From the IMG/VR virus record IMGVR_UViG_2909314774_000005: DNA of 40,883 nt; one strand, given 5' to 3'. A program made the translations under genes and the position numbers. Below the pieces are notes generated by a model that saw only the letters and a list, made by a program, of their open reading frames with translations, made no database searches and was not told the origin of the DNA. Of this stretch, positions 1,020-38,771 are shown in pieces (position 1 is the first letter of the stretch; the number at the start of each line of letters is the position of its first letter). Origin of the DNA: a virus (lineage: Duplodnaviria; Heunggongvirae; Uroviricota; Caudoviricetes).

Positions 1020-1239
1020 TCTGAATACCTCCCCATTCGATATGAATATTACGGGCAGCAATGACAGGGTCGTTATTCCACCATGCACCTGACATGTATT
1101 TTTCAACCTGTTCGCGTCCGGCAATAACACCAATTGTGATCCCCGGCCTGACGTTCTTAAAAAAGGCGCGGGCAAAAAGGTATCTGGCAGATATTCGGCA
1201 GGCTTTTAATTTCCGGCTTTTACCTGATAGCGTAATCAT
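1009..1239 (-). CDS. hypothetical early protein (76 aa)
   Basis: ATG overlaps the stop of the upstream gene (ATGA) and is preceded by GGAGG; no recognisable motif. Confidence 0.55.
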   Translation of the reverse strand: MITLSGKSRKLKACRISARYLFARAFFKNVRPGITIGVIAGREQVEKYMSGAWWNNDPVIAARNIHIEWGGIQNDY

Positions 1240-1919
1240 CTGGCCTCCAGTTTCTGTTGTTCCTGCCCACTGACCGGGCGGTGCAGTCTGACGTTCTGCC
1301 CTTCACGAAACCCCGCATAGCGCGAGGCGTCGCCATTGCGGCTTCTTCCCGGTTTACGCGCCCTGGTGGTTTGCGTCTGCGGGTATTTATGTTCCAGCCA
1401 CTGCTGCATCAGTTCACGCTCATCATCGGTCAGGGCAAAGGACTGTATTTCACTGATAACGGCCAGCACCCAGCCTTCGGCAAACTGGTCTCCACGGCTG
1501 GTGCGGGTGGCGGTTTTTATTCTTTTGTTCTGTGCACTGATATACTGCTGACGCGCCTTTTTCAGCTGACGGGCCAGCACTTCCCAGGTGTATGCAGCCA
1601 GTGCCGCACGTTCCCGGTTGCCGTAGAACCCCACAGACGGATGCGTGCCGGGGTGAATGATGGAGTTAACACCAAATACCTCGCGGATGATGTTCATCAG
1701 GCCCAGCATGTAGCGCGGTGGACGGAGACTGCCTGTCGGCCAGTAGTGACTGATGGTTTCATCAATATCACTCATAGCAATGTCGGAATGTGTGATGCCG
1801 TGAACATCCATCAGTTTACGGGCTCGGCGCAGTGCCAGAGCGGCCTCGTGCGGGTTGCCGGATGCGGCCAGCGCCAGCAACTTTTTCAGTTTCTCAATGT
1901 GTTTATTCTGGTCTGTCAT
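1236..1919 (-). CDS. conserved phage early protein, DUF2786-like N-terminus (227 aa from the second ATG)
   Basis: N-terminal KLKKLLALAASGNPHEAALALRRARKLM helix typical of DUF2786-family phage proteins; start chosen at residue 13 ATG, which overlaps the upstream stop as ATGA; the ORF could also start at 1955. Confidence 0.65.
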   Translation of the reverse strand: MTDQNKHIEKLKKLLALAASGNPHEAALALRRARKLMDVHGITHSDIAMSDIDETISHYWPTGSLRPPRYMLGLMNIIREVFGVNSIIHPGTHPSVGFYGNRERAALAAYTWEVLARQLKKARQQYISAQNKRIKTATRTSRGDQFAEGWVLAVISEIQSFALTDDERELMQQWLEHKYPQTQTTRARKPGRSRNGDASRYAGFREGQNVRLHRPVSGQEQQKLEAR

Positions 1920-2131
1920 TGTTCTGTATCTCCGGTATTTTTCTGCCGTTTCCATGCCCGGACAGCGTCGGACAGCTCTTTCAGGCTGTATGCTGCTTTA
2001 AGCTTTTCCCATAACCACTGTGTTGTTATGTGCATCAGCAGGGCAGCCAGGGCTGCCCCCGCACTGAGGCATGTCGCCAGGCCAGTAAGAATCAGTGTCC
2101 ATGCGGTGATTTCCCTGAGTATGTCAGCCAT
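1916..2131 (-). CDS. small membrane protein (71 aa)
   Basis: ATG preceded by GGGAGG; one long hydrophobic segment WTLILTGLATCLSAGAALAALLM. Confidence 0.55.
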   Translation of the reverse strand: MADILREITAWTLILTGLATCLSAGAALAALLMHITTQWLWEKLKAAYSLKELSDAVRAWKRQKNTGDTEQ

Positions 2132-2145
2132 TGAATGCCTCCCGG

Positions 2146-2442
2146 TTACTCGTTCGTGTAAATCACGCCCAGTCGTGCAGCCAGACGTTCCAGTTTTTTC
2201 TGTTTGTGGAAGTCAATCAGCCGGTCCATCCCCTGAAGGCGCAGTTGCTCTGTCATGATTTCCACGTCTGCCAGCTCTGCCGCGAGGTCACTTTCGCTGC
2301 CCTGTCCGTTCAGGTTGCGGGCGGCACTGGCCGCCAGTTCAGCGGCCTCTTCTGCCAGTTTCAGGGCCTGTGCGTCCGGCCCGAAACGCTGCAGGGCCAG
2401 ACGGTAGAGGGCGGTGCGGGTGAGTTCGGTGTTTCGTGTCAT
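2146..2442 (-). CDS. MazG-like nucleotide pyrophosphohydrolase (98 aa)
   Basis: All-alpha MazG/NTP-PPase-like acidic motifs (LAEEAAELA ... ELADVEIM) at the expected spacing; ATG preceded by GAGGG. Confidence 0.55.
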   Translation of the reverse strand: MTRNTELTRTALYRLALQRFGPDAQALKLAEEAAELAASAARNLNGQGSESDLAAELADVEIMTEQLRLQGMDRLIDFHKQKKLERLAARLGVIYTNE

Positions 2443-2451
2443 GCCGCGCCC

Positions 2452-2724
2452 TCAGTGCTTCCGGCTGACGGTGATGTGCAGGCCGCCTTCTGCAGTGGTT
2501 TCCATCCGGTACGGCACCTCATGCTCTGCCGTGTGGGTGAGTGTGTTCATCAGTACCTGCAGGGCAGCCTCCTTTCCGTTGGTCGCCACAATGGCCTGTG
2601 TGGCCATGCTGATTAGCGCCGTCAGGACGTGCTTCACATCGGTGAGGTCGCGGCATTCACACTCGTTGACATAGTGTTCAACAAGGGTTCGGGTGCGCTG
2701 TCGTGCTTCCTGTGGGGTAATCAT
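2452..2724 (-). CDS. hypothetical early protein (90 aa)
   Basis: ATG overlapping the upstream stop (ATGA), GGGAGG upstream; no recognisable motif. Confidence 0.55.
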   Translation of the reverse strand: MITPQEARQRTRTLVEHYVNECECRDLTDVKHVLTALISMATQAIVATNGKEAALQVLMNTLTHTAEHEVPYRMETTAEGGLHITVSRKH

Positions 2725-2915
2725 TGCGAGTCCTCCCTGTCAGGGCGGGAGAATTCCATGACGGGCACGTCTGCCGAAAAATGCTGGCTGCAGTACGGGC
2801 AGACCAGGGTGACGCGTACCGCAGGGATGTGGTATTTACCGGACATCACGGCGATGGCGCTGTGAAAACGCAGGGCTGTTATATCCCTCTCGCACTGAAT
2901 ACATTTAAATATCAT
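2721..2915 (-). CDS. small zinc-ribbon-like protein (64 aa)
   Basis: Two CxxC pairs (CIQC ... CPYC) about 30 residues apart; ATG preceded by GAGGAG. Confidence 0.55.
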   Translation of the reverse strand: MIFKCIQCERDITALRFHSAIAVMSGKYHIPAVRVTLVCPYCSQHFSADVPVMEFSRPDREDSQ

Positions 2916-3012
2916 GATTTAATTCTCCTCTGTTTCCGGCGTGCAGAAGCCCGCGGCGCTGACGTCGGAATAAAAAAGAAAATGTTTTTATTAAATAATT
3001 AACGTGGTGTGT

Positions 3013-3543
3013 TTACTGCACATCCTGCTCAAAAGGAATTATTGAAAAATCCTCAATGTCGCTTTTAATGGAAATACCGGGAATATTTTTCACGGCCTCT
3101 TTTTCATTCAGGATAGCGTCTTTATTTATTTCCTCTTTTACACGAATAAAGCGCTCAAGCCCCAGACGTCTCAGTAATTCAATAACATTATCCGCCCCAC
3201 GGATACTGACTGATGGCGGACGGTTTCGCCACTGCACCTCGCCGGTGGTGAGGTTAGCGAACTTCACCTTCCCGTTGCCGGTCAGTTCATCACGGTGTGC
3301 CTCACACCATGTCTGAATACCGGACTGCAGTTCGGCCATGCGTTTTTTCAGGCTCTCGGTGAGCGGGGCATAACGTGCGGTGATATCGCCAATGGCGTCA
3401 TTCATTTCTGTTTCAGCCCTGACCAGTTCACGTTGTGCGTCACCGAGTAGTCTGATTCCCTCAATGACCTCTTCACGTGTCCCCGGCACCCAGAGTGCTG
3501 CTGCGGCCTTGATACGTTTTGCACCTTTTGTACTTTTTGCCAT
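3013..3543 (-). CDS. gam: host-nuclease inhibitor Gam (Mu Gam-like, Ku-like DNA end-binding)
   Basis: 176-aa ORF, length and sequence character of Mu Gam; position downstream of the B-like ATPase in the early operon matches Mu. Confidence 0.8.
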   Translation of the reverse strand: MAKSTKGAKRIKAAAALWVPGTREEVIEGIRLLGDAQRELVRAETEMNDAIGDITARYAPLTESLKKRMAELQSGIQTWCEAHRDELTGNGKVKFANLTTGEVQWRNRPPSVSIRGADNVIELLRRLGLERFIRVKEEINKDAILNEKEAVKNIPGISIKSDIEDFSIIPFEQDVQ

Positions 3544-3570
3544 TTTTTATGATTTCTCCAGTTGTGCTGA

Positions 3571-3840
3571 TTACCACAAAGATTCCGGCCACACGACGCG
3601 ACAGCCGTGCAGTTCGAAAACGCCCTGACGGAAATATCCCCTGTGGTCATGTCCGGTATACAGATAACAGGCCTTTCCCTGCTCAAGCATGCGCATGCAA
3701 TGCGCACTCCGGGAAACGCGGATGACAGGTTTGTTACCCCTGATGGTGATGCTTTGTACATCCGTGTTCGTCGCCTTAAGCGCCATAATGGCTGACTGCA
3801 CTTTGCTGATTTGCTGGTTGATACCTGTGGTGGATTTCAT
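3571..3840 (-). CDS. hypothetical early protein (89 aa), in the position of Mu kil-region genes
   Basis: ATG preceded by AAAGGGG, begins 3 nt after the ATPase gene stop; no recognisable motif. Confidence 0.5.
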   Translation of the reverse strand: MKSTTGINQQISKVQSAIMALKATNTDVQSITIRGNKPVIRVSRSAHCMRMLEQGKACYLYTGHDHRGYFRQGVFELHGCRVVWPESLW

Positions 3841-3842
3841 TA

Positions 3843-5009
3843 TTAAACCCCTTTGACAACGTCAGCGTTGACCTGTGGAACCCCGATTTCAGCGGCCAGA
3901 TTCATGGCGGCTATTACCAGGTTACTGACGGCCAGCGGATACAGCAGGCTGACCATATTTTTACGGTGACTTCCCGGATTGCTCAGGCGGGCACGTATGG
4001 CATCCACTGCACCGGCGTCCATAATGTCCGTCAGCTGTTTACCGGCCCGTTGCAGTTTGAACGTCAGAAATTCTTCAAGGTTATTGTCCAGAGGCAGAAG
4101 TTCGACCACCTCACAGCGCTGAACGACTTCACGGACTTCCATATTGCGTTCAGACAGTTTTGTCGCCAGTTCCGGCTGGCCAATCAGCACGATGGACAGC
4201 AGTTTTTTGAAACCGGACTCCAGCTCAAAAAAGCGTTTGAGGTGTTTCAGTGTCGGAATGGGCAGACTGTGGGCCTCCTCAATCACCAGAACGTGGCTGA
4301 ACCCCGCCTGGCTGCTGTCTTTCAGGACGCGATGCAACTGGCGAAAACGGGCGTCCTGACTGCGTCTGATGCTTTCCAGTGGTGCGATGGTACTGATAAT
4401 GGCTTCGGCAATAGCTGCTGCCTTCAGGGTTTTCCCTTTCACATCGTTGTCTTCCATAGCGATGATGTATGGCTCGATAACAATTACCGGCGCATTCTCG
4501 CGGTTGATACGTTCAGTCAGGTCGCGGCGCAGCGTGGATTTACCCGCACCGGACTCACCGATGACGGCCATAAACCCACCATGACGGGCTGTCTGGTACA
4601 GCGCCTCACGCACGTAGCGAATGTCCGGGGTGGTGAACACATCATCAGAACCCTGCATGGCTTCGTCGGCGAACGGGTCACGGAAAAGACCAAACGCTTT
4701 TTTGGTTGCTGGAAATAACACCTGTTTTTTGAGTAACATATTCTCTTCCTCACTGAGGCTCGTTTTATCTGTGGTACCCGCTGTACGGGGCGTGGCCGCG
4801 CCCTGTACAGCATCAAAACTCTTCGTTGTATCAATCCCCTGACTTTCCAGCCAGGACGCAAGACGCCGGCGCACTTCTCCGGGGCTGGTGCGGGGCCACG
4901 CGTTATGATTCACAATCTGGGCCAGCGTGGCCTCAGAAACATCGACAGCTCTCGCCACCACCGCCTGTGGAATACGGGCCTCTTTCAGTTGCTGCTTCAG
5001 TACCAGCAT
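3843..5009 (-). CDS. transposition AAA+ ATPase (MuB/TniB-like target DNA activator)
   Basis: Walker A GESGAGKST, Walker B-like VLVIEEAH; start taken at internal ATG (5009) preceded by GAGGAGGG, 10 nt after the transposase stop; the track ORF begins at an upstream GTG (5048). Confidence 0.85.
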   Translation of the reverse strand: MLVLKQQLKEARIPQAVVARAVDVSEATLAQIVNHNAWPRTSPGEVRRRLASWLESQGIDTTKSFDAVQGAATPRTAGTTDKTSLSEEENMLLKKQVLFPATKKAFGLFRDPFADEAMQGSDDVFTTPDIRYVREALYQTARHGGFMAVIGESGAGKSTLRRDLTERINRENAPVIVIEPYIIAMEDNDVKGKTLKAAAIAEAIISTIAPLESIRRSQDARFRQLHRVLKDSSQAGFSHVLVIEEAHSLPIPTLKHLKRFFELESGFKKLLSIVLIGQPELATKLSERNMEVREVVQRCEVVELLPLDNNLEEFLTFKLQRAGKQLTDIMDAGAVDAIRARLSNPGSHRKNMVSLLYPLAVSNLVIAAMNLAAEIGVPQVNADVVKGV

Positions 5010-5019
5010 GTTTCCCTCC

Positions 5020-6789
5020 TCAGTTGCCGTTAACAATGCTGATAACACTGCTGCGGGCCGGTGTGGTCAGCGTGGCCATGACTTCATCCAGTGCGGCTTC
5101 CGGTACGCCGTCCGGGTACTGTGCCGTTAACTGGCGGTAATGTTCCGGCGTCCAGGTAAGGCCGTCGGCGCTGAACTTATCGCGCAGGGCTTTCGCGGCC
5201 TCCACATGAGTCATGGGACGTTGTTCAGTGCGCGGCCCGCGTACGTCAGAGGCCTGACCACGCTTCGGCATATAGGCCGGAAGTGTGGTGTCGTCGATAT
5301 GTTTATACGGGTCAAGCCGCCCGCCGAACGGCAGCGCCTTCGCCTTGCGTGCGGCGGCTGCATCTGCGGCGTTGTCTGTACCGGTAACCAGCGCTTCGGT
5401 TTCTTTTGCCGCCATCTGTGCCGGGGTTTCCGGCAGGGCTTTGTAACTTTCGCCAAATACCGCCGCGCCTTCAGCAAAGCCAAACTCGTTCTTTCTGACC
5501 TCTTCGACCAGGAAGAACGTCTCGTGGCCGTCCTCACCGGTCAGAACCACCTGTGCCACATCGCTGCGCCATGGGTTACGGGTAATCATCAGTTTTTCAC
5601 CAACCAGTACGCCCGGTACCGTTGATACGTCAAATTCAGTGCCCCGGAACGAGACACGAAGTTTTGGCGTGACTTTGCGGAGTTCTGGTGCCGCCACAGC
5701 CAGTTCACGACATACCTCAACGGAAGGCGCTTTTTTCAGCTGCTCAGCAGTAATCTTCAGCCAGATATCCGTGCGGGTTTTACCGTGGCGGCTGTGAACA
5801 GCCGTGGCGTTAAAGTGGCTGCGCCATTTCGCGGCCAGCGCGTTGAGTTCTTCCAGACTGTGAACCGGCCGGAACTTCAGACCCGGCTCCAGCTTGCGTT
5901 CGATAATGTCACGCGCCTTTTCCACCTGTCCGGTGGCGCGGGCGTTATGCGGCTTGTGCGCTATCAGGTCGATGCCCAGTGAGCGGCACATGTTTTTCGT
6001 CATACCCGCGGTGTTTGCCGAGCCGGGGTCGAGATAGAGTATTTTCGGCACGCCGTGCAGCACGTCTGCGCCGCCACGCTCCTGCATGGCGTTGATAAGC
6101 ACAGAACACAGGTTCTCACCTGATTCCGCGCCCGTCACATACTCAACGTAAATCCAGCCGCTGGCATGGTCGGTAATCTCGTAACTCCACACGCGGTCAC
6201 TGGCGATACGGGCAAGGTTAGCGGGCTTGTTCTTGTAGAACTTCGCGCTGTCCATCACCTGCAGCCCTTTATGTCCATTGCTCAGGTAGTAAAGCGTGCA
6301 GAGTGAGGCGTCAATCTGCCAGACATGATTGGGATGCAGACTGGCCACTTCGGTATGTGGTGCAGGGGCATCCAGTTGTTCCGGGTGCAGGCCATAGTTA
6401 CGCAGAGCACGGCTGATGGCATCTTCAGACAACGGGAAAAACTCACTGGTGGTTTCATCTGTTCTGCCTGCGGTGATAAAGCCGTTAGCCCGCAGGGTTT
6501 CCACTGCATCTGCGATGGAATAGAGACGCTTACCGTTCTTGCGGGTGGCCTCACGCAGTGTGGCAGATATCAGCGCGGCTTCGTCGCGGGTCAGGGCGCT
6601 GCGCCCGGCATCGGCGCGTTTTTTGCGTTTATCAGTCACAGATACCTCCTTCAGCCTGCGCAGCAGAGTGGCGCGGGACATGCCAAGTTCAGCACAGGCA
6701 GCGTCGTATATTGCACCGCGTTTACCATGCCCCGCGTCACGTGCCGCGCGGGCTGTTTCAACCAGTTTTTCAGTCAGTGCCGGGGTCAT
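5020..6789 (-). CDS. DDE (rve/integrase-core) transposase of the transposable phage
   Basis: 589 aa; N-terminal HTH; DDE-like triad candidates (VWQIDAS, LYLDPGSAN, GQVEKA) in retroviral-integrase-like spacing; N-terminus unlike MuA as I recall it; sits just upstream of the AAA+ ATPase gene. Confidence 0.85.
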   Translation of the reverse strand: MTPALTEKLVETARAARDAGHGKRGAIYDAACAELGMSRATLLRRLKEVSVTDKRKKRADAGRSALTRDEAALISATLREATRKNGKRLYSIADAVETLRANGFITAGRTDETTSEFFPLSEDAISRALRNYGLHPEQLDAPAPHTEVASLHPNHVWQIDASLCTLYYLSNGHKGLQVMDSAKFYKNKPANLARIASDRVWSYEITDHASGWIYVEYVTGAESGENLCSVLINAMQERGGADVLHGVPKILYLDPGSANTAGMTKNMCRSLGIDLIAHKPHNARATGQVEKARDIIERKLEPGLKFRPVHSLEELNALAAKWRSHFNATAVHSRHGKTRTDIWLKITAEQLKKAPSVEVCRELAVAAPELRKVTPKLRVSFRGTEFDVSTVPGVLVGEKLMITRNPWRSDVAQVVLTGEDGHETFFLVEEVRKNEFGFAEGAAVFGESYKALPETPAQMAAKETEALVTGTDNAADAAAARKAKALPFGGRLDPYKHIDDTTLPAYMPKRGQASDVRGPRTEQRPMTHVEAAKALRDKFSADGLTWTPEHYRQLTAQYPDGVPEAALDEVMATLTTPARSSVISIVNGN

Positions 6790-6804
6790 AGCTTGTCTTC
6801 CCTG

Positions 6805-7122
6805 TTATCCGATTCTGGCGGCAATTTTTCTGGCGAGGTCGCACAGTGTTTCGCCATCGCAGGTTTTCACCACGGTATTTACCGGTTGCGGTGCAACTAC
6901 CGGGCGTAATGCTGACTGATTCTGCAGACGTCTTATCTGCTGCATCAGCATCACCTCCATCGTCAGTACAAACGGGTGCGTCTCCTGTGCGGGTACGCAG
7001 ATTTCACCGGAAGGGGTCACCACGCGGAAACCCTGCACCATCTCCGGCAGCAGATTACACAGTGCGTGCCCCAGTGCCTCCGGGCTGTCCATCAGGGTAT
7101 TTTGTGTGTTATTCGTATTCAT
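6805..7122 (-). CDS. hypothetical early protein (105 aa)
   Basis: ATG overlaps the upstream stop (TAATG), GGAGGAT upstream; no recognisable motif. Confidence 0.55.
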   Translation of the reverse strand: MNTNNTQNTLMDSPEALGHALCNLLPEMVQGFRVVTPSGEICVPAQETHPFVLTMEVMLMQQIRRLQNQSALRPVVAPQPVNTVVKTCDGETLCDLARKIAARIG

Positions 7123-8042
7123 TACTGCATATCCTCCGGTCGGTTGATTTCAGGTTCCGGTTCGGTCAGCCAGGCGGGGGCATCGTTACCCGATGGAGCG
7201 GCCTCAAGGTCAAACGTCTCACGTAATGCATGAACACTGCGTTCAATCTGGCAGACCAGACCGGCCATGAAATCTCTGGGGGTATCGATCATGTTTTTGG
7301 TGCAGTATTCACACAGGGTCTCAAAAACACTGGACAGCCGGACGGCGATAGCCGATTCGGCCTCAACCGCTAATGCCGTCACTTCCGCCCGCAATTTTTT
7401 CAGTTCTTCGTCTGGCGGCGGAGGTTGCAGGCGCGATTTCTTCTCCAGTTTTGTGGCCAGTTCGTTGATTTTTTCGTCCTTTCCGGCAAGCACCTGTTGC
7501 TGAGCTGCGTTGGTTTCGCGCGCTTCACGCAGGGCGGCCTTCAGTTCGCGGCTGGTCATGCGATCAATATCATCAAGCGTTGCACCGGCGACGGTTCCAC
7601 CATCAGCTAATGCGTCGAGTTCTTCGTCATCCAGAACCATCAGTTCATATAACTTGGTTTTTCCCAAAACGCTCAGCGCTGAGCGTTTTGGCTGTTCATC
7701 TCCATTGCCGAGAAATTTCACGCTGGCCTGCATCATGCGACGAGCTACCTGTGGTGCTAATCCGAGGTCGTTTTCCAGAATATTTGTGAAATCACCATGC
7801 GGTTCATTTTCTTTTAAGATGATCAGCCGCTTACCCGCTTCCAACATAGATTCAGCACTCTGCGCCATATAAAAACGTGCTTCGTGAACGATGCGTTCAC
7901 GTTCATAAGGCAGTCCATCACCAAACTGCTGCATGATCTCCATGCGATGCTGTGTCATGGCATTCAGGCTGACGTTGAGATCATCCGACAGCGGTACATC
8001 GGCGTTCAGTTCAGTGTTAATCGGTGATTTGGTACGTCCCAT
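7122..8042 (-). CDS. conserved Mu-like early protein (306 aa, possibly DUF3102-like; coiled-coil centre, Pro-rich linker)
   Basis: ATG preceded by AAGGAG; central EELKKLRAEV coiled-coil-like segment and PPPPDEE linker; family assignment is from memory and unverified. Confidence 0.6.
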   Translation of the reverse strand: MGRTKSPINTELNADVPLSDDLNVSLNAMTQHRMEIMQQFGDGLPYERERIVHEARFYMAQSAESMLEAGKRLIILKENEPHGDFTNILENDLGLAPQVARRMMQASVKFLGNGDEQPKRSALSVLGKTKLYELMVLDDEELDALADGGTVAGATLDDIDRMTSRELKAALREARETNAAQQQVLAGKDEKINELATKLEKKSRLQPPPPDEELKKLRAEVTALAVEAESAIAVRLSSVFETLCEYCTKNMIDTPRDFMAGLVCQIERSVHALRETFDLEAAPSGNDAPAWLTEPEPEINRPEDMQ

Positions 8043-8052
8043 TGATTACTCC

Positions 8053-8367
8053 TTACAAACGACTACCTGAAATGACACGTTGGTTAATTTCGTTAATACG
8101 ATCCTGTGCACGTGCCATCTCGTTACTGTGGGCCATGGCGATCTGCAGTAACTGGATGCCCGGTGCAAAACGTCCGTTCTCCAGTTTCAGAGCCAGCCCT
8201 TCTTCAATGAGGGTGTTGAGTGCCCGGTTGATGTTTGCCGGTGACTCGTGCAGTGCTGTCGCCAGTTCACCGTTAGAAATACCGTTCAGGGCATGACCGC
8301 GCAGCGCTTTGAGTACCCGGAGGATGCGACTGCCGGAGCTTGAAACATTCGTCTTACTCATCTGCAT
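8053..8367 (-). CDS. winged-helix DNA-binding protein (104 aa), second early regulator candidate
   Basis: RILRVLKALRGHALNGISNGELATALHESPANINRALNTLIEEGLA has a MarR/IclR-like wHTH pattern; ATG with AGAGG upstream. Confidence 0.55.
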   Translation of the reverse strand: MQMSKTNVSSSGSRILRVLKALRGHALNGISNGELATALHESPANINRALNTLIEEGLALKLENGRFAPGIQLLQIAMAHSNEMARAQDRINEINQRVISGSRL

Positions 8368-8413
8368 ACCTCTTTTGCGATATGTGATAACCTTTTACAA
8401 AGACTCAAAATAT

Positions 8414-8602
8414 TTAGGCCGCCTGAGCTGTTGATTTCAGTCCCAACTTCACGGCGATTTCATGGGATTTACCGTAACGGGCTTTGGTCTGCCCGTTGAG
8501 AACGCGGTATACCTCATTGCGGTTGTAGCCGTTTTCTTCTGCCCAGCGGGTGAAAGTGATCCCGCGCTGGCGGAAGAGAGCTTTGACTTGTTCTGCAGTC
8601 AT
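8414..8602 (-). CDS. Ner-like/Cro-like DNA-binding regulator, first gene of the early operon
   Basis: 62-aa basic HTH protein (FTRWAEENGYNRNEVYRVLNGQ), ATG preceded by AAGGAG; divergent from the repressor gene across a palindromic operator. Confidence 0.75.
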   Translation of the reverse strand: MTAEQVKALFRQRGITFTRWAEENGYNRNEVYRVLNGQTKARYGKSHEIAVKLGLKSTAQAA

Positions 8603-8654
8603 CGTTGTCTCCTTTGTTGATGCAATGATGTTTGCCTTATATGTGTTAGATTAT

Positions 8655-8672
8655 TGCTCATAATTATGAGCA
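8655..8672. promoter_or_regulatory. 18-bp perfect palindrome TGCTCATAATTATGAGCA in the divergent repressor/early-operon control region
   Basis: Read directly: 9+9 perfect inverted repeat centred in the 93-bp AT-rich spacer between the ner-like start (8602) and repressor start (8696). Confidence 0.5.
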
Positions 8673-8695
8673 TATCAAGATAGAGATTCACTTTT

Positions 8696-9052
8696 ATGAG
8701 CAAAGATATAGGAGAGCGCGTTATTTCTGTGAGGAAGAAAGCAGGGTTGAACCAGAGAGAATTTGCAGCTCGTTTAGGTATTTCTAATGGTGGTATCAGT
8801 CAGATTGAAAATGGAAAGGCGATGCCTGGAGGGGAGTTTCTGTTAAAGATGCATCAAGAGTTTAATGTTGATGTAAATTGGTTGCTCACTGGAATGAGCA
8901 CAGATGGTATGACTAGAAACCAGAATCAAATTTCCCCAGAAAAACAAAAACTAATAGATACTTTTGACGACATGACACCAGACCAACAACGCTCATTTCT
9001 TGAGATTGGGCGATTCTATACTCAGCCAAAACCAGGAAAAATCGCAGGCTGA
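8696..9052 (+). CDS. XRE-family HTH repressor (c-repressor analogue)
   Basis: 118-aa ORF with Cro/C1-type HTH (LNQREFAARLGISNGGISQIENG) and WLLTG motif; transcribed opposite to the early operon; weak SD, as is common for repressors. Confidence 0.8.
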   Translation: MSKDIGERVISVRKKAGLNQREFAARLGISNGGISQIENGKAMPGGEFLLKMHQEFNVDVNWLLTGMSTDGMTRNQNQISPEKQKLIDTFDDMTPDQQRSFLEIGRFYTQPKPGKIAG

Positions 9053-9137
9053 TACTGACCCGGACACAAAGGACAGGTGGTTGATCTGGATGCTTTCAGA
9101 AAACATCGCCAGTGACATAGTGGAAGTTGTTTGGTTT

Positions 9138-9170
9138 ACCGGAAAGCATTGTGCTTTCCGGTTTTGTTTC
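9138..9170 (+). terminator. Rho-independent terminator downstream of the repressor gene
   Basis: Perfect 10-bp stem ACCGGAAAGC / GCTTTCCGGT with 5-nt loop followed by TTTTGTTT on the + strand; the T tract overlaps the dam stop codon on the other strand. Confidence 0.55.
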
Positions 9171-9933
9171 AGAAGTTGCAGATTAGCAGTTCACGGCGCG
9201 GCGTGGGTTTACCCGCCAGACTGTAGTTGATATTCACTGTCTGTATGTTCAGTCCAGTGAACACCTCGCGCATCTGCGGGATGTCGTTCACCGAAATTAT
9301 CATTTTTCCTCTGATGCACCGGGCCAGCTCTGCCAGCCGCGAGTAGTTCCCTTCAGGAAAATCCACACCATAGCCTTCCGTACCCAGGTACGGTGGGTCG
9401 CAGTAGAACAGCGTGTGCGGACGATCATAACGCTCAATGCACTGTTGCCAGTCCATGTGTTCTATGACTGTTCTGGAAAGCCGCAGGTGTGCCGCTGACA
9501 GTTCTTCTTCAATACGTAGCAGGTTGAAGCGTGGCGGGGATGTGGTGGAGGTACCGAAGCTGTGCTCTGCCACCTTGCCGCCAAACGCCTGCTTCTGAAG
9601 GTAGTAGAACCGTGCCGCACGCTGGATATCCGTCAGTGTTTCTTCCGGGGTGATCTGCAGCCATTTGTAGATCTGACGGCTGACCAGCGCCCATTTGAAC
9701 TGGCGGACAAATTCTTCCAGGTGATGCTTTACCACCCGGTACAGATTCACCAGTTCACCGTTGATATCATTGATGACTTCGATCTTGCCGGGTGTCTTAA
9801 GAAAATAGAGCGCTGCTGCCCCACAAAACGGCTCCACATAACATTCATGCGCCGGAAACAGCGGCAGAATGTGTTTTGCAAGGCGGCGTTTGCCACCAAT
9901 CCACGGCACGATGGGTAATGTCTGCATTTTCAT
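9169..9933 (-). CDS. DNA adenine methyltransferase, Dam family (D12-class N6-MTase)
   Basis: N-terminal PWIGGKRRL and FxGxG-like VEPFCGAAALYF AdoMet motif, C-terminal catalytic DPPY (LFYCDPPYLG); start taken at ATG 9933 (MKMQTLP) rather than track start 10023. Confidence 0.85.
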   Translation of the reverse strand: MKMQTLPIVPWIGGKRRLAKHILPLFPAHECYVEPFCGAAALYFLKTPGKIEVINDINGELVNLYRVVKHHLEEFVRQFKWALVSRQIYKWLQITPEETLTDIQRAARFYYLQKQAFGGKVAEHSFGTSTTSPPRFNLLRIEEELSAAHLRLSRTVIEHMDWQQCIERYDRPHTLFYCDPPYLGTEGYGVDFPEGNYSRLAELARCIRGKMIISVNDIPQMREVFTGLNIQTVNINYSLAGKPTPRRELLICNF

Positions 9934-9981
9934 AATCTGCAAGCCTTTTACAATTATTAAAAAATATGGCAGTCTGGTCAG

Positions 9982-9993
9982 GTCTCGCGAGAC
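9982..9993. promoter_or_regulatory. 12-bp perfect palindrome GTCTCGCGAGAC about 50 bp upstream of the dam start
   Basis: Read directly; flanking arms extend the dyad imperfectly; no adjacent T tract on either strand, so more likely a protein-binding site than a terminator. Confidence 0.35.
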
Positions 9994-10123
9994 TGACTGA
10001 ACCTTGGTCGGCTCACAGCGCATTCCTGTGGGGCGATGACCAGCCCGGCTTTCGGGTGCCGGGCTGGTCGTTCTTTCATGATGCGGCAGGGATGGCGGGA
10101 TTTCTGTTAATGTGGTTTAGGGA

Positions 10124-10339
10124 TTATCCGGGGCGATTTTCTGACCTTATCCGGTCCAGGGCATAAGTAATACCTTCTGCAAAAACAGAAGTATCAAACT
10201 GCTTTTGTATTCCCTGAAAATGAAAAGCGGCACGACAGACACTCAGTTCTCCGCGGTATAACCGGATAATATCTTCCAGAACATTGTTCACTGCTTCAGC
10301 ACGGCGCTGATGTTCTGTTAACGTTAATCGGGGATTCAT
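10124..10339 (-). CDS. hypothetical protein (71 aa)
   Basis: ATG preceded by a strong TAAGGAG SD at 6-7 nt spacing; no recognisable motif; lies in an AT-richer stretch. Confidence 0.45.
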   Translation of the reverse strand: MNPRLTLTEHQRRAEAVNNVLEDIIRLYRGELSVCRAAFHFQGIQKQFDTSVFAEGITYALDRIRSENRPG

Positions 10340-10742
10340 GATGCACTCCTTAAATGATGATTTTTATGTACTCACCGGCAAAATATTCTGCCGATTACTG
10401 AACACGCATCCGGCACCTCAGGTTTTGATTTATTCTGGTTTTTTCGATATCCCGGACCAGGTTGATCACGACCAGAAAAAGTGCCGGTGTTTTATTGATA
10501 CGCTGATATGGCTTCGGGATAACAGCTATATTCGTTACTCTCAGTTGCTGGCTGTGGGAGCGGCTGATGTCGTCCTCACGGAAAAAACGCTCTGTCTGCT
10601 CAATGCCATGCCGACCTTTCTGCAGCCCCGGCCCGTACCATTTAAAGAGTCACTTCTGGATGCAGTAAAAACCGGTGAAAATGCAGTCATCGCTGAATGC
10701 GTATCCCGGATTATGCGTTACGTGTTTAATGAACGTAAGTGA
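10338..10742 (+). CDS. hypothetical protein (134 aa)
   Basis: ATG preceded by CGGGGA; exactly fills the 378-bp gap between the P-loop gene stop and the 71-aa ORF start; its start overlaps the 71-aa ORF start on the other strand (shared CATG), so one of the two may be spurious. Confidence 0.35.
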   Translation: MMHSLNDDFYVLTGKIFCRLLNTHPAPQVLIYSGFFDIPDQVDHDQKKCRCFIDTLIWLRDNSYIRYSQLLAVGAADVVLTEKTLCLLNAMPTFLQPRPVPFKESLLDAVKTGENAVIAECVSRIMRYVFNERK

Positions 10743-11446
10743 GGTTTATCCGCTGTCTGCATAATCCCGATAGCCAGTGCGAGGGGAAGTAATTCCGGGG
10801 AAACTCTTTCAAACAGCGATGCCCATTCTCCTCTCGCCATCACTCTGTCCAGCCCGCCCTCCAGTTGCATTTCAGCAATCTTCCTGATTTCCCGGAACAA
10901 CGCCGCTTTGATCTCTTCATGCTCAGCTTTATTTTCCGGTGTCAGAAGGTATTCGTCGAAGAACCGGGGAGGCTGGTTAATCGGGATGTGTTCCTGTTTG
11001 CCGTACTTCGGGGACGAACAACATTCTGTTGACTGACCAGTGAGTTTACGTAACTCCTTCATGAGCAGCTCCTGATCGTAAACTGTCATCAGTGCCGCAA
11101 TGGTGGCATGCAGTGCATCGGGCAGTATCCAGGGTTGCCGGCCCGTGGGGCATATAACATCCAGCAGCTCATTCGTCCGACAGATACGCTCCTCGCCGTA
11201 TGACAACAGGCCCTGTCCCGTGTATTCCTCCAGCCTGATCACTGTGCCAGCCCGTGGTTTCTGCCATGTGCTCAGATCATCCCCACTCATACGGCGCTCA
11301 CCGTCCACGTCTGCGGCGTCGACAATGACGCTGTTTCCGAATTCCTGTTTCACCACTTCCTCTATTCGCGCCAGTACGTAACTTTTACCGCTGCCCACAG
11401 GACCGGACACGGTGACAGTGATGACCGGATTCAGTGTCTGCGTCAT
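10718..11446 (-). CDS. uncharacterised P-loop NTPase (242 aa)
   Basis: Walker A GPVGSGKS at residues 15-22; ATG preceded by GAGGAG; divergently transcribed from the lysis operon; no family recognised for the C-terminal 160 residues. Confidence 0.75.
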   Translation of the reverse strand: MTQTLNPVITVTVSGPVGSGKSYVLARIEEVVKQEFGNSVIVDAADVDGERRMSGDDLSTWQKPRAGTVIRLEEYTGQGLLSYGEERICRTNELLDVICPTGRQPWILPDALHATIAALMTVYDQELLMKELRKLTGQSTECCSSPKYGKQEHIPINQPPRFFDEYLLTPENKAEHEEIKAALFREIRKIAEMQLEGGLDRVMARGEWASLFERVSPELLPLALAIGIMQTADKPHLRSLNT

Positions 11447-11576
11447 ATCGTATTCTCCTCTGTGAATAATTCATCGTTTATCCTGCACATCCCGTATCCC
11501 CGGCTCTCTTAACGCGCTTTAAAATCCTTCGCGCCCTGTATTTGTGATGCTGTCTCCACCAGATAAGGAGACACAC

Positions 11577-11927
11577 ATGAAAAACCTGAAAAAATTCATT
11601 CCCCCTGTTAAAAAACCTCGCCTCAGCGGCTGGCTGCTGACCTCAGTGCTGTTGCTGGGCACCATCGCTCTGGTCTCACCACAGCAGCTGCCTGTTGTGA
11701 TCTACAAGCTGGCACTCATCACGCTGGCAGCAGTGCTGGGTTACTGGCTTGACCGTTCGCTCTTCCCCAAAGCCCGTCCCGGTCAGTACCTGAAACATGA
11801 CGACAGGCTGATGGCTGAAGGGCGTTTCCCGGTACAGACCGGCCTTCACCTGGTGTTTTCTGCTGCGTTAATCCGCCGTGCACTGATTGTTGCAGCGGTC
11901 TGCCTGGCTGTTGCGATGGGGCTTTAA
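11577..11927 (+). CDS. putative holin-like membrane protein (116 aa, three predicted TM segments)
   Basis: First gene of the late/lysis operon; ATG preceded by AAGGAG (track ORF begins at upstream GTG 11544); three hydrophobic segments; holin role inferred from position only. Confidence 0.6.
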   Translation: MKNLKKFIPPVKKPRLSGWLLTSVLLLGTIALVSPQQLPVVIYKLALITLAAVLGYWLDRSLFPKARPGQYLKHDDRLMAEGRFPVQTGLHLVFSAALIRRALIVAAVCLAVAMGL

Positions 11928-11929
11928 TC

Positions 11930-12670
11930 ATGAACTGGCCGCAGATCACCTGGATTGTATGCATGTCCCTGAAACTGGCTTTCGAAGCCTTTCGGGTCTT
12001 CATCAGAACCGAACGCCTGTCAGTCCGCGCCGGGACCTTTCTGGTTCATATGGCATGGGTATTCTTTGTCGCAATGTTGCTCTGGTGTGGCGGCTTTTTC
12101 AGCCAGGCATGCGCAGCACAACCTCCGCAGGCTGCGCTGCAGTATCGCGATGATGTGATCCGTAATGCCCGGCTTGAATGGGGACTGTCTGCGCCGGTGG
12201 CCGATTTCGCCGCGCAACTGCATCAGGAAAGCGGCTGGCGACCTGATGCGATCTCGCCGGCTGGCGCTCAGGGACTGGCGCAGTTCATGCCTGCCACTGC
12301 CGACTGGATAAGCCAGTTGATACCGATGCTGAGCAGTCGTGAGCCGTTTAATCCGGCATGGGCTATCCGGGCGCTGGTCAGCTATGACCGCTGGCTGTGG
12401 CAGCGTGTCAGCGCCGCCAGTGACTGCGAGCGTATGGCCATGACACTGTCGGGCTATAACGGTGGTCTGGGCTGGGTACAACGGGACAGGCGGCTTGCAT
12501 CACAGAAAGGTCTGGACAGCACCCGCTGGTTCGGACATGTCGCCACGGTGAATGCCGGACGCAATGCGGCCAGCTGGCGGGAGAACCGCCATTATCCGCA
12601 GCGCATCCTGCGCGAACTGGCACCGCGATATCTCACATGGGGAGGCAGCAGTTGTGTGGCATCTGGTTAA
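11930..12670 (+). CDS. endolysin, lytic transglycosylase (SLT domain) with N-terminal hydrophobic signal/anchor segment
   Basis: Family-1 LT motif QESGWRPDAISPAGAQGLAQFMP; ATG 2 nt after the holin-like stop; N-terminal hydrophobic stretch (residues about 37-60) may be a signal peptide or SAR domain. Confidence 0.85.
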   Translation: MNWPQITWIVCMSLKLAFEAFRVFIRTERLSVRAGTFLVHMAWVFFVAMLLWCGGFFSQACAAQPPQAALQYRDDVIRNARLEWGLSAPVADFAAQLHQESGWRPDAISPAGAQGLAQFMPATADWISQLIPMLSSREPFNPAWAIRALVSYDRWLWQRVSAASDCERMAMTLSGYNGGLGWVQRDRRLASQKGLDSTRWFGHVATVNAGRNAASWRENRHYPQRILRELAPRYLTWGGSSCVASG

Positions 12671-18920: not shown

Positions 18921-19048
18921 ATAACCGCCTCCGGTTCACCGCATTGCTTTCCCTGTCCTTCTCCCCTGATGTTTTCTAAAGCAGATTAAAATCGCCGGGC
19001 CTGCATTTCTCACAAACTGTCTCCGACAACATAACGCGGGACAGCAAA

Positions 19049-31238: not shown

Positions 31239-31274
31239 GCTTTTTAAACGCCTTTAATATCAGCGTTCCCGCAC

Positions 31275-33307: not shown

Positions 33308-34639
33308 ATGGGAAACCTGAATGAAACAGAAAAGTGGGAAGAAAATATCTATCAACTGGAGACATCAGATCCGGTTCTGGGTGGTGCAGACGGGATATCA
33401 AATCGAGCCCCCCGGCAACTGGCAAACAGGACGAAATGGCTGAAGAAGAAAACGGAGGAAGCCGCACAGTCACTGGCTGAACACGTACGTTCCCGTAACC
33501 ACCCGGACGCGACACTGACAGCTAAGGGGTTCACCCAACTGAGCAGTGCCACCAACAGCACCTCTGAAACGCTGGCCGCCACACCAAAAGCGGTCAAGGC
33601 TGCATACGACCTGGCAGCCGGCAAGGCGCCTGCCAGCCACACTCACCCGTGGAGTCAGATAACGGGAGTGCCTGCGGCTTCACTGACGGCAAAAGGCACC
33701 GTACAACTGAGCAGCGCCACGGACAGTCAATCAGAAACTGAGGCTGCCACGCCGAAGGCGGTCAAGGCTGCATACGACCTTGCAGCCGGCAAGGCGCCCG
33801 TCAGCCACACTCACCCGTGGAGTCAGATAACGGGAGTGCCTGCTGCCTCGCTGACGGCAAAAGGCACCGTACAATTGAGCAGTGCCATCAACAGCACGTC
33901 TGAAATACTGGCCGCCACACCGAAAGCGGTCAAGGCTGCATACGATCTGGCAAACGGAAAACAACCGGCAGATGCCACGCTCACTGCTCTGGCAGGACTT
34001 GCCACTGCAGCAGATCGGTTGCCTTATTTTACCGGAGCAGACCGCGCAGAGCTGGCAACCCTTACAGCTATTGGTCGCGCTATTATCGCTAAGGGCAGTA
34101 TAAAAGATGTCCTCAATTACCTTGGTTTAGGAGAAGGCTCGGCGCTACCCGTTGGTGTGCCTGTTCCGTGGCCCACCGCCACACCGCCAGCAGGCTGGTT
34201 AAAGTGCGACGGGCGCGCCTTTACAAAAGAACAATATCCTGTTCTGGCCAGAGTCTACCCGACCCTCCGTCTTCCCGATTTACGCGGTGAGTTTATCCGT
34301 GGATGGGACGACGGGCGCAAAGTTGATACAGGACGTAAGTTGCTGTCCGCACAAGGGGCAACGCTGTTAAGAACAGCAATGCTGGATTATTATAACCAGG
34401 ACACTACGGGAACCTCGGGGATAGTCGGCATGGGATTCAACAATGAAGATTCCATTACAGACCTTCGTGAGGGCAGCTTTAAAATGCCGGACGGGACAAC
34501 ATTCAGCGATCCTGTCGTGGCAATGTCAGACAATGGTATGCAGGCTACTATTCTGACCTCTATCAGAAGCGGGTATGCGAAGGGTATCACTGTCAGACCC
34601 CGTAGCATTGCACTTAATTACATTGTGAGGGCAGTTTAA
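33308..34639 (+). CDS. tail fibre protein (constant N-terminal part plus currently expressed C-terminal variable cassette)
   Basis: 443-aa ORF from first ATG; internal 56-aa tail-fibre repeats; C-terminal part after the gix-like site (from LGEGSALPVGVPVPWP) is homologous to the two inverted cassettes downstream. Confidence 0.85.
   Translation: MGNLNETEKWEENIYQLETSDPVLGGADGISNRAPRQLANRTKWLKKKTEEAAQSLAEHVRSRNHPDATLTAKGFTQLSSATNSTSETLAATPKAVKAAYDLAAGKAPASHTHPWSQITGVPAASLTAKGTVQLSSATDSQSETEAATPKAVKAAYDLAAGKAPVSHTHPWSQITGVPAASLTAKGTVQLSSAINSTSEILAATPKAVKAAYDLANGKQPADATLTALAGLATAADRLPYFTGADRAELATLTAIGRAIIAKGSIKDVLNYLGLGEGSALPVGVPVPWPTATPPAGWLKCDGRAFTKEQYPVLARVYPTLRLPDLRGEFIRGWDDGRKVDTGRKLLSAQGATLLRTAMLDYYNQDTTGTSGIVGMGFNNEDSITDLREGSFKMPDGTTFSDPVVAMSDNGMQATILTSIRSGYAKGITVRPRSIALNYIVRAV
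33518..33961 (+). repeat. tandem 168-bp (56-aa) repeats, about 2.6 copies, inside the tail-fibre gene
   Basis: Protein repeats TAKG(F/T)xQLSSAxxSxSExxAATPKAVKAAYDLAAGKAPxSHTHPWSQITGVPAASL starting at residues 73, 129 and 185. Confidence 0.8.
34110..34135 (+). other. gix-like recombination site (expression-locus copy) at the constant/variable junction of the tail-fibre gene
   Basis: Right half-site GGTTTAGGAGAA resembles the Gin/Hin site half GGTTTACAGGAA (from memory); the same half-site recurs inverted at 35713-35738 and 38692-38717, exactly where homology to the fibre C-terminus begins. Confidence 0.55.
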
Positions 34640-35253
34640 TGAGTAACACTGCAGTTCTGGATGAAAACGGTATCGCCACTGTAGCGGGCGATATCACTGT
34701 ATATCACTATGACGAGGAAACCCGGGAATACACCTCATCCTCTGTGGAGTATCTCGCCCTTGGGGTGGGTACTCCGGCACATTCGTGCGCCGATGCACCG
34801 CCGGAAGCAATTTCGGGTTACGTGGTTTGCCGGACTGCCACGCTGAACGGGTGGGAGCATGTGCCTGATCACCGCGGCGAGACGGTATACAGCACGGAGA
34901 ACGGTAACCCCGTTCTGATTACCCAACCGGGTGATTACCCGGCGGACACCACCACAAAACAGCCAGCCACGCCATGGGATACCTGGAACGGTGAGGCGTG
35001 GGTAACCGATACTGAACGGCAGCGAGCCGCAGAACTGGAGGTTGCCAGACAGCAACGCCAGCAACGGGTGAAACAGGCGATGGCGTCCGTCGATCTTATC
35101 AACCTCAAACTGCGTGCTGGTCGCAGTCTGAAACCAGAAGAAACGGCAAAACTGAACGCCGTGCTGGATTATATCGACGAGCTGAACGCACTGGATATCA
35201 GCAAGGCACCTGAAATCAGCTGGCCGGAAGCGCCACTGGCGCTTGCCGGCTGA
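34639..35253 (+). CDS. tail fibre assembly chaperone (Tfa family, Mu U-like)
   Basis: 204-aa ORF with Tfa-like motifs (VPDHRGETVY ... WNGEAWVTDTE ... ISKAPEISWPEAP), directly after the fibre gene. Confidence 0.8.
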   Translation: MSNTAVLDENGIATVAGDITVYHYDEETREYTSSSVEYLALGVGTPAHSCADAPPEAISGYVVCRTATLNGWEHVPDHRGETVYSTENGNPVLITQPGDYPADTTTKQPATPWDTWNGEAWVTDTERQRAAELEVARQQRQQRVKQAMASVDLINLKLRAGRSLKPEETAKLNAVLDYIDELNALDISKAPEISWPEAPLALAG

Positions 35254-35259
35254 ACGGTA

Positions 35260-35721
35260 TCACGCCGCCCTCACGATATAGTTAAATGCGATATTGCGGG
35301 GGCGAGCTGATACATAAGCCCACCAGTCATATCTTTGTGCACCTTTAGAGGATGCATCAAATATCCACTTTTTGCCATTTAAGACCCCCAGTTGATTAGA
35401 GGTTAAAGCGTCACCAAATCCGTATTGTGTAGAGCCGAGCGAACTGATATCTCCGGTATCATTATCATCAAAACCGGATACGATAGTCCCTTCCTGAAAT
35501 GAAAGTAGCGCACGCCCGGTATCAACCTTGCGACCACCGTCCCATCCACGGATAAACTCACCGCGCAAATCGGGAAGACGGAGGGTCGGGTAGACTCTGA
35601 CCAGAACAGGATATTGTTCTTTGGTGAACGTAGCTCCGTTGCACTGTAACCAGCCTGCTGGCGGTGTGGCGGTGGGCCATGGAACCGGTACACCAACAGG
35701 CAATGCAGAGCCTTCCCCCAA
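35260..35721 (-). CDS. silent, inverted alternative tail-fibre C-terminal cassette (153 codons, begins with Leu TTG at the gix site)
   Basis: First about 70 residues near-identical to the expressed fibre C-terminal region (GEGSALPVGVPVPWPTATPPAGWL...), divergent tip, same C-terminal ending (RPRNIAFNYIVRAA); no ATG, so expression requires inversion. Confidence 0.7.
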   Translation of the reverse strand: MGEGSALPVGVPVPWPTATPPAGWLQCNGATFTKEQYPVLVRVYPTLRLPDLRGEFIRGWDGGRKVDTGRALLSFQEGTIVSGFDDNDTGDISSLGSTQYGFGDALTSNQLGVLNGKKWIFDASSKGAQRYDWWAYVSARPRNIAFNYIVRAA

Positions 35722-37549: not shown

Positions 37550-37579
37550 GACCGTTTTTATAATGCGGTCAGGAGTTTT

Positions 37580-38700: not shown

Positions 38701-38717
38701 ACCAACGTTTATCTCTC
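38692..38717 (-). other. gix-like recombination site (inverted copy 2), adjacent to gin
   Basis: TTCCCCCAAACC-AA-CGTTT, identical core and half-site to copy 1; lies about 55 bp upstream of the invertase gene. Confidence 0.5.
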
Positions 38718-38771
38718 AAATCCTCCCCACATTATCTCAGTACTTTAACCACTCAAAAGGGAGTATTTTTA

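Follow-up and report, generated by a model that had tools for sequence, protein, structure and literature searches.

We examined the interval between the repressor gene and the lysis cassette of a prophage contained in a 40,883-nucleotide (nt) stretch of DNA (IMG/VR record IMGVR_UViG_2909314774_000005; the whole stretch is called the window hereafter). The window begins with a gene for a Mor-family activator (1-390), followed by an early transposition operon (Gam, ExeA-like TnpB and DDE transposase) and the repressor gene. The remainder comprises a holin and SLT endolysin lysis cassette, Mu-type terminase, portal and tail genes, an IS66 element, a DNA invertase gene and host aroA. Positions 8400-11950 match Escherichia phage PhiKM (genus Bcepmuvirus) at 100% identity, and at least 99% identity to this region was found in 381 of 635 matching complete E. 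coli genomes, many of which belong to sequence type 131 (ST131). The copy of the prophage in strain EC958 sits between aroA and ycaL, and the coordinates of its invertible tail-fibre segment agree with those published for prophage Phi2 (PMC4134206). The element is a BcepMu-like transposable (Mu-like) prophage and corresponds to Phi2 of E. coli ST131 EC958.

The repressor gene (8696-9052, plus strand) encodes 118 amino acids (aa) with matches to Pfam HTH_3 (4.6e-15) and Phage_CI_repr (1.8e-5), and it forms the left border of the variable region described below. The right flank is the holin gene (11577-11927, plus strand; Pfam Holin_2-3, 1.5e-41; phrog_1528). It is the first late gene and is followed by the SLT endolysin gene, the two together covering 11577-12670 on the plus strand. 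Four genes lie between these flanks. A D12-class N6-adenine DNA methyltransferase of 254 aa (hereafter the methylase) is encoded at 9169-9933 on the minus strand. Next comes a head-to-head pair, the small member of which encodes 71 aa (phrog_4490; 10124-10339, minus strand) and the large member 134 aa (phrog_2266; 10338-10742, plus strand). The last is a 242-aa gene (phrog_3787; 10718-11446, minus strand) with a Walker A motif in its N-terminal domain, here called the P-loop gene, which overlaps the 134-aa gene tail to tail by 25 nt. A terminator-like hairpin with a T-run follows the repressor gene, just past the methylase stop codon (9138-9162, plus strand; an 11-bp stem with 6 GC pairs, then TTTTGTTT).

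Each of the four is a real gene, as evidenced by the Pfam D12 match of the methylase, the homologues of the 71-, 134- and 242-aa proteins, and the inclusion of all four open reading frames (ORFs) in the RefSeq annotation. An initial annotation of the window had placed them between the repressor and the first late gene, with coordinates and strands that we could confirm. Only the methylase start needs to be moved: the ORF is open to 10023, but the likely start is 9933, in agreement with RefSeq and with 256-aa homologues. The initial annotation had also judged 10.1-10.75 kb to be AT-richer by eye. The computed GC content is 0.444 and 0.462 in the 71- and 134-aa genes compared with 0.531 in the methylase gene and 0.534 in the P-loop gene (whole window, 0.545). 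The AT-richer stretch is real but modest, and its extent is exactly that of the pair. As had been supposed, no match to a transposition, lysis or morphogenesis function was obtained for any of the four. An Rfam search of 8300-11700 returned zero RNA families.

Related loci in IMG/VR were collected by anchoring on the holin gene. This census gave 80 loci, of which 66 contained both flanks, and the counts of loci below refer to these 66 unless another set is named. Two other approaches yielded little: a scan of genome contigs gave 4 loci only, and a word-indexed protein search with family alignment returned nearly nothing beyond close E. coli relatives. The repressor-holin interval ranged from 2352 to 4806 nt and showed more than 30 architectures. 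This high variability agrees with the earlier description of an accessory cargo locus. The methylase was present in 50 of the 66 loci, the N-terminal P-loop domain in 21 and the 71/134 pair in 12, and none of the four genes was found in 10. The methylase occurred without the P-loop domain in 35 loci, the P-loop domain without the methylase in 6, and both together in 15. In E. coli, the pair had the methylase and the P-loop gene as its flanks in 12 of 12 loci. What had been treated as one cargo locus consists instead of three cassettes with separate distributions, and the earlier remark that a functional methylase-NTPase link would be speculation was well placed, since the two genes occur independently.

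The content of the interval turns over among close relatives, and relatives with a different repressor allele also differ in their downstream cargo. In E. coli GIMC1410 (locus L004), the interval contains a nucleoid-associated protein, a 401-aa protein and the methylase, without the other three genes. Another E. coli relative (L005) carries two unrelated proteins and a truncated P-loop gene, and the methylase is absent. A 23-codon remnant of the methylase N-terminus lies beside replaced DUF2441 cargo in E. coli 503440 (L006, positions 4380-4448). E. coli PKF4 (L007) has the same four genes, with the P-loop gene internally deleted and the 134-aa gene frameshifted; at positions 3932-4332 of this locus the 134-aa gene is split in two frames and its 71-aa partner is intact. 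The PKF4 and 503440 alleles are signs of a hotspot undergoing decay and replacement. The interval of Klebsiella KP12 contains the methylase and a DUF2441 protein, and alternative contents were also seen in Salmonella and Serratia prophages. In Burkholderia BcepMu, the interval is filled by three unrelated rightward genes, and all four window genes are missing; its gp18-20 were compared with the enterobacterial cassettes and were unrelated to all of them.

In Salmonella and other relatives, the methylase comes directly after the P-loop gene with no pair between. This looks like the older arrangement, into which the AT-richer pair was inserted later. The Serratia prophages keep the order methylase, 73 aa, 139 aa, and the gene beside their holin encodes 89 aa only. 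This 89-aa protein is the counterpart of the C-terminal module of the 242-aa protein, without Walker A. An arrangement kept without the Walker A domain rules out an obligate methylase-NTPase partnership.

The right border of the variable region is sharp, and identity is lost directly left of a late-promoter box (11509-11524). The bounding genes are conserved and the content turns over among close relatives, which is the structure expected of a hotspot. Ten alternative cargo proteins from the same interval of relatives were scanned, and no validated defence gene was found among them; the matches were a weak KwaA-like one (8e-5) and helix-turn-helix (HTH) ones. The region fits a hotspot by structure, not by function. 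A separate observation concerns the cargo of L004 (positions 237-2452), where a 37-kDa nucleoid-associated protein (NA37, 1e-80) is followed by the 401-aa protein, the source of the weak match to KwaA (Kiwa) at 8e-5. Several IMG/VR relatives share this cargo, which might be a further candidate for a conflict module.

The methylase matches Pfam PF02086 at 101.4 bits (cut-off 22; E 8.7e-29) over profile positions 1-248 of 253. Its S-adenosylmethionine-binding motif I (EPFCGAAA, FxGxG-like) and its catalytic motif IV (CDPPYLG, the DPPY motif) are intact and align with those of DpnM and Dam. PADLOC assigns it to the generic type II methylase model MTase_II (9e-112). The label "Dam" given in the initial annotation holds at the level of the D12 class, and the Dam subfamily model TIGR00571 is barely passed (116.6 bits, cut-off 114.85), but the E. 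coli Dam equivalog NF008152 is failed (67 bits, cut-off 441). The residues of the E. coli Dam recognition hairpin that contact GATC are N120, L122, R124 and P134. In a phmmer alignment, which is uncertain in this loop, GLCRYN of Dam stands against GKVAEH, so that R124, L122 and N120 align with A, K and G and appear not to be conserved. GATC is at most a putative target, and the name Dam is only partly justified.

The identical protein (WP_000783854.1) is found in EC958 and JJ1887, and the methylase is the already known M.EcoMIV (EC958_1101) of prophage Phi2. In mid-log EC958 cells, transcription of M.EcoMIV was significantly below that of dam, and the enzyme was assigned no methylation motif in the EC958 methylome; its REBASE entry is a putative type IIA enzyme, with homologues of more than 65% identity that have no determined site (PMC4659465). 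The distribution of M.EcoMIV has been covered elsewhere (PMC5654935), and Phi2 is treated in PMC4134206. In the 50 loci that carry it, the methylase retains at least 81% aa identity across genera (holin, at least 66%). No other resident of the region is as frequent or as conserved, and the methylase is near-core. We found no nuclease domain in its neighbours with Pfam, PADLOC or NCBIfam, and hence no cognate restriction endonuclease beside it. The methylase stands alone next to the holin in many relatives, and in 23 loci without an intervening P-loop gene the spacing between its start codon and that of the holin is 246-250 nt. A sigma-70-like promoter candidate for the methylase lies at 9953-9981 on the minus strand (CTGACC-17-AATAAT), with 9 of 12 positions matching and consensus match as its only basis. 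Further upstream is a GC-rich hairpin (10036-10070; 12 bp, followed on the plus strand by GTTCTTTC; minimum free energy -32.8 kcal/mol, z = -4.8). The hairpin accompanies the methylase cassette, being also present between the methylase and the holin in L004, and is a possible insulator against rightward read-through into the lysis genes.

The methylase is near-core, is poorly transcribed in the lysogen and lies next to the late promoter; from these features, we infer that it may be a lytic-phase self-protection enzyme, a functional counterpart of Mu Mom. It would be made mainly in lytic growth and would methylate replicating phage DNA, and the progeny could then escape restriction in the next host. 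The mom gene of Mu adjoins a late promoter, as the methylase gene does here. A lytic-phase phage function is a better fit than lysogenic-conversion cargo for a gene that is the most conserved of the region, is poorly transcribed in the lysogen and was assigned no new methylation motif. The methylase resembles the orphan Dam-family methyltransferases of phages (T4 Dam, P1 Dmt and Stx-phage Dam): it has the D12-class motifs, lacks a cognate nuclease, is phage-borne and would probably share their role of protecting phage DNA. It appears to differ from E. coli Dam in the target-recognition hairpin, and this phage strongly avoids GATC.

The GATC content of the window was recorded in its own right. 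There are 112 GATC sites against 157-200 expected; the site is depleted in enterobacterial relatives too and over-represented in Burkholderia BcepMu. A GATC-free stretch of 6,149 nt (1138-7287) spans nearly the whole early (transposition) operon. About 1e-5 such gaps are expected, and no other palindromic 4-mer has a comparable gap. A connection with Dam/SeqA control in a phage replicating by transposition is possible, and the gap fits awkwardly with a phage-borne "Dam-like" methylase.

The start codons of the 71-aa and 134-aa genes overlap by 2 nt in the tetranucleotide CATG (10337-10340). The 134-aa protein has a homologue of 53% identity in Serratia BcepMu-like prophages and homologues of about 30-34% identity in P2-like phages, and the 71-aa protein has a Serratia homologue of 31% identity (E 1e-10). 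In 43 of 43 diverged IMG/VR loci, an ORF of 63-86 aa lies head-to-head with the 134-aa homologue and the two ATGs overlap. The overlap takes the CATG form in 30 of these loci and depends on the ATG chosen as the start in the other 13. The small-protein family shares a conserved motif, NNDLSSREV..YT.K.VEQAS, in 31 distinct P2-type sequences. The conserved head-to-head ORFs, the motif of the small proteins and the Serratia homologue of the 71-aa protein indicate that both genes are coding. All but one of the diverged loci (42/43) lie between the portal gene and replication gene A of P2, the interval known as the tin/old hotspot, from which several validated anti-phage systems have been described (PMC9519451).

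Neither member of the pair matched anything in Pfam, NCBIfam, PADLOC or the PDB sequences, including a profile search of the PDB with the 134-aa family, and the AlphaFold2 model of the 134-aa protein was poor (predicted local distance difference test score, pLDDT, 53.8). Several candidate assignments were rejected. UniRef names the Serratia 134-aa homologue DUF2513, which was not reproduced: seven family members had no Pfam match at E <=1. A winged-helix DNA binder, considered from the sequence pattern and the annotation of phage Midge, was weakened by the family isoelectric points of 4.7-6.8 and by the absence of any HTH model match. A 2018-aa "homologue" (P0042) with 18 repeats was a low-complexity artefact.

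Since the start codons abut, each promoter has to lie inside the partner gene and the transcripts have to overlap at their 5' ends. From this layout, we infer that the two genes would interfere with each other's expression. A likeness to the face-to-face promoter switches of the P2/186 type (C/Cox, CI/Apl) is apparent, in that divergent genes with 5'-overlapping transcripts favour mutually exclusive expression. Unlike in those switches, the coding regions here meet at overlapping start codons, the proteins have no relation to C/Cox, and the arrangement is known from sequence alone. The pair is an AT-richer, horizontally mobile two-gene cassette, and its likeliest role would be in conflict between phages or between phage and host, either as exclusion or as counter-defence. 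Among the cassettes of the region, it stands out as the best new candidate. A more specific proposal is that the pair is an autonomous new conflict module, a head-to-head bistable switch that has been transferred between the variable regions of BcepMu-like and P2-like (tin/old) phages. We offer this as a tentative idea that is rather unlikely to hold.

Two features of the P2-like versions were recorded. In P2-like phages, the pair usually occurs with a 90-aa gene, a homologue of Midge gp047, between the pair and the portal gene (L008, positions 44-316; 42 IMG/VR loci), and the P2 version of the pair may be a three-gene unit. The 90-aa gene has no counterpart in the window and is unrelated to the window proteins. 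In addition, the C-terminal ~25 residues of the P2-type 134-aa homologues are hydrophobic and glycine-rich (GVIAGAVTNLLTLGVNLV), and those of the window version are more polar (AVIAECVSRIMRYVF). Judged from its composition, the hydrophobic C-terminus of the P2-type homologues could be a membrane anchor.

The 242-aa protein had been labelled a P-loop NTPase. The Walker A motif is present (GPVGSGKS, residues 15-22), but every AAA and ABC Pfam model stays below its gathering threshold. The best curated ATPase family was AAA_30 (16.5 bits, cut-off 27), and ABC_tran, T2SSE and AAA_19 were also below threshold. An exhaustive HMMER search gave 60 cluster representatives of the family. The N-terminal mini P-loop domain (residues 1-76; 11219-11446, minus strand) is conserved at 35-57% identity in about 50 of them, some of which are stand-alone proteins of 73-92 aa. 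Among 26 family members G20 and K21 never vary, and some members have a degenerate Walker A, GAESSGKN. A Walker B candidate, VIRLEE (residues 69-74), is common but not invariant, and it is deleted in the PKF4 allele. The rest of the protein (minus strand) consists of a middle module (residues ~104-140) and a C-terminal module (~170-232), which are shuffled among family members, and E. coli alleles include truncated (158 aa) and cleanly internally deleted (182 aa) variants. The model of the N-terminal domain has a pLDDT of about 90, DSSP assigns no strands to the AlphaFold2 model, and fold searches with the model gave no match. Profile matches to PDB chains covered only 20-45 residues around Walker A (strand, Walker A, helix), and those in PADLOC were marginal Walker-A-type matches with E values of 0.003 or worse. 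The domain resembles P-loop NTPases (ABC, AAA+ and nucleotide kinases) in its strand, GxxGxGKS and helix, its invariant Gly-Lys and a putative later hydrophobic strand with an acidic end (VIRLEE). It differs in that the conserved unit is only ~75 aa, also occurs as stand-alone proteins of 73-92 aa and belongs to no Pfam family at gathering score. Close relatives are all in BcepMu-like prophages, divergent from the holin. A lambdoid prophage of Pseudomonas and large uncultured phages carry more distant relatives in their late regions.

The distance from the P-loop gene ATG to the holin ATG is 130-132 nt in 23 of 23 loci. Near the centre of this divergent spacer, at the right border of the variable region, lies a dyad late-promoter box, TTAACG-CG-CTTTAA(AA) (11509-11524; TTAACGCGCTTTAAAA). 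It is an imperfect version of the dyad TTAAAG-N2-CTTTAA, and all variants, Burkholderia BcepMu among them, retain it upstream of the holin. The motif TTAAMGCNNTTTAAAA has 6 matches in the window against 0.23 expected, and copies of the box are located just upstream of the lysis (11509-11524), head (18976-18991) and baseplate (31242-31257) operons. An extra copy within the invertase gene (38914-38931) is unexplained. The boxes probably mark late promoters on which the Mor-family activator (gene at 1-390) acts. In Mu, the activators Mor and C recognise dyad sites with a centre near -43.5, and by analogy with this geometry the box at 11509-11524 could serve both directions. The fixed spacing to the holin ATG and the dyad box centred in the spacer and repeated before late operons suggest that the P-loop gene is co-regulated with the late genes. 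The earlier suggestion that this gene is likely to be transcribed independently of late transcription is therefore probably incorrect, although this conclusion is drawn from the arrangement of the DNA. The protein is phage-specific, with a conserved N-terminal domain of ~75 aa of nucleotide-binding type and a mosaic C-terminus, and would be activated together with the late genes by the Mor-family activator.

Given these observations, several explanations for the four genes can be compared. They might form one integrated anti-phage system, resembling restriction-modification and abortive infection (RM and Abi) or consisting of a methylase and an ATPase, in which the methylase marks self while the NTPase and the small proteins sense or act. 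A variable region beside the repressor is typical for prophage defence cargo, the E. coli pair is flanked by the methylase and the P-loop gene in all of its loci, and the methylase weakly matches component B of PD-Lambda-5 (8.7e-16, against 9e-112 for the generic MTase_II), a compact prophage RM+Abi system (PMC9519451). However, no homologue of PD-Lambda-5_A is present. The defence function suspected in the initial annotation was not recovered either: PADLOC-DB v2.0 returned generic MTase_II models for the methylase only, no matches for the 71- and 134-aa proteins and no defence system at the locus, and no nuclease or other effector domain was detected in the neighbours. Beyond the marginal hits of the P-loop protein, the three partners of the methylase are without PADLOC matches. 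Moreover, the components separate freely: 34 loci have only the methylase, 6 have the P-loop domain but no methylase, and 42 P2-like phages carry the pair and neither of the others. The Serratia relatives keep their arrangement without a P-loop domain. The low transcription of the methylase in the lysogen and the lack of a new motif in the EC958 methylome also argue against a single system, to which we give hardly any credence. A narrower version, in which the 71/134 pair alone is a new anti-phage or superinfection-exclusion module and the methylase and P-loop gene are mere neighbours, is somewhat easier to entertain. The pair behaves as a self-contained mobile cassette that occurs in the variable regions of two unrelated kinds of temperate phage, one of these regions being the validated P2 tin/old hotspot (PMC9519451); its unusual gene layout is strictly kept, purifying selection acts on both proteins, and its composition is foreign to its neighbours. 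Nevertheless, this is guilt by location only, and hotspots carry counter-defence, regulatory and selfish cargo too. The pair has no PADLOC match, its small proteins have no recognisable enzymatic or membrane effector domain, and the 134-aa gene is frameshifted in PKF4 without obvious consequence for the prophage. We regard this version as possible but not favoured.

The genes might, on the other hand, be ordinary lytic functions of the phage lineage, such as DNA modification, packaging or lysis timing, rather than cargo, and efficient lytic growth would then depend on the methylase and the P-loop protein. The conservation of the methylase, which exceeds that of the holin and the endolysin, agrees with this view, as do the fixed distances to the holin ATG of both the P-loop gene (130-132 nt) and the methylase (246-250 nt) and the distant homologues of the P-loop domain in the late regions of other phages. 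All four genes are nevertheless absent from 10 of the 66 related phages and from BcepMu, the methylase is absent from 16 and the P-loop domain from 45, the methylase remnant in L006 shows that the gene can be lost, and the P-loop protein has deletion variants. This explanation is unlikely. Finally, the "P-loop NTPase" gene might be a decaying mosaic remnant without function, as its truncated (158 aa) and internally deleted (182 aa) alleles, the 89 aa of C-terminus kept in Serratia, the degenerate Walker A GAESSGKN of some members and the lack of a fold or family assignment would suggest. Such decay is quite improbable for a gene whose intact ORF is 100% identical across hundreds of genomes, whose N-terminal domain retains 35-57% identity across distant phages, stand-alone forms and the invariant G20 and K21, and whose position relative to the late box is strictly kept.

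The explanation that we prefer, and consider reasonably probable, is that 9.06-11.5 kb is a hypervariable accessory region extending from the repressor to the late box, in which three cassettes (the methylase, the 71/134 pair and the P-loop gene) have been gained and lost independently. The gene content and its variability, the separate distributions of the cassettes, the fixed spacings and the published identity of the methylase are shown here, whereas the timing of expression and every biochemical role are predictions. Several points weigh against this explanation or the roles proposed within it. The census is biased towards Enterobacteriaceae, depends on its own reference set and counts unrecognised cassettes as absent. 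The absence of the methylase from 16 of the 66 relatives and from BcepMu indicates that it is not essential, and a simple Dam-like role in protection is difficult to square with the strong avoidance of GATC by the phage. Sigma-70 scans gave only weak promoter candidates for the pair and no promoter for the P-loop gene. The P-loop domain is shorter than a canonical NTPase core and has no fold match. Some lineages delete its third strand or the whole domain, so that nucleotide binding may be dispensable or absent.

The closest comparison for a hypervariable accessory region of this kind is the P2 tin/old locus between replication gene A and the portal gene Q (Rousset 2022; Vassallo 2022, PMC9519451). 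Both are short intervals with conserved borders, wholesale replacement of content and mostly hypothetical genes, and the head-to-head pair type is common to both. The present region differs in lying in a BcepMu-like phage, between the repressor and the lysis promoter, and in having a near-core methylase resident. In contrast to the P2 hotspot, the variants examined here contain no experimentally validated defence gene.

Some further observations were made outside the variable region. The tetranucleotide CTAG occurs once in the 35.8 kb of phage sequence (1-35800), an extreme case of the usual enterobacterial avoidance of CTAG. The tail-fibre region includes an assembly gene (34639-35253) and an inverted Collar-domain fragment (35260-35721), and host aroA occupies 39600-40883. 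A three-ORF IS66 element (35936-38352) lies between the tail-fibre region and the resolvase-type DNA invertase gene (38643-39344). A 2,067-bp tail-fibre segment of EC958 Phi2 has been reported to invert (PMC4134206); given this report, the invertase apparently still works across IS66.

Phi2 is present in most clade C ST131 E. coli, a pandemic and multidrug-resistant group, and its accessory genes are accordingly carried by very many clinical isolates. With the hotspot of BcepMu-like phages, the positional mining of candidate conflict genes extends to a third family of enterobacterial temperate phages, in addition to P2 and P4. The methylase, which is known, near-core and poorly transcribed in the lysogen, is not evidence of a defence system. 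The region offers two uncharacterised, testable candidates, namely the head-to-head pair shared with the P2 hotspot and the mini Walker-A family with its shuffled C-terminal modules.

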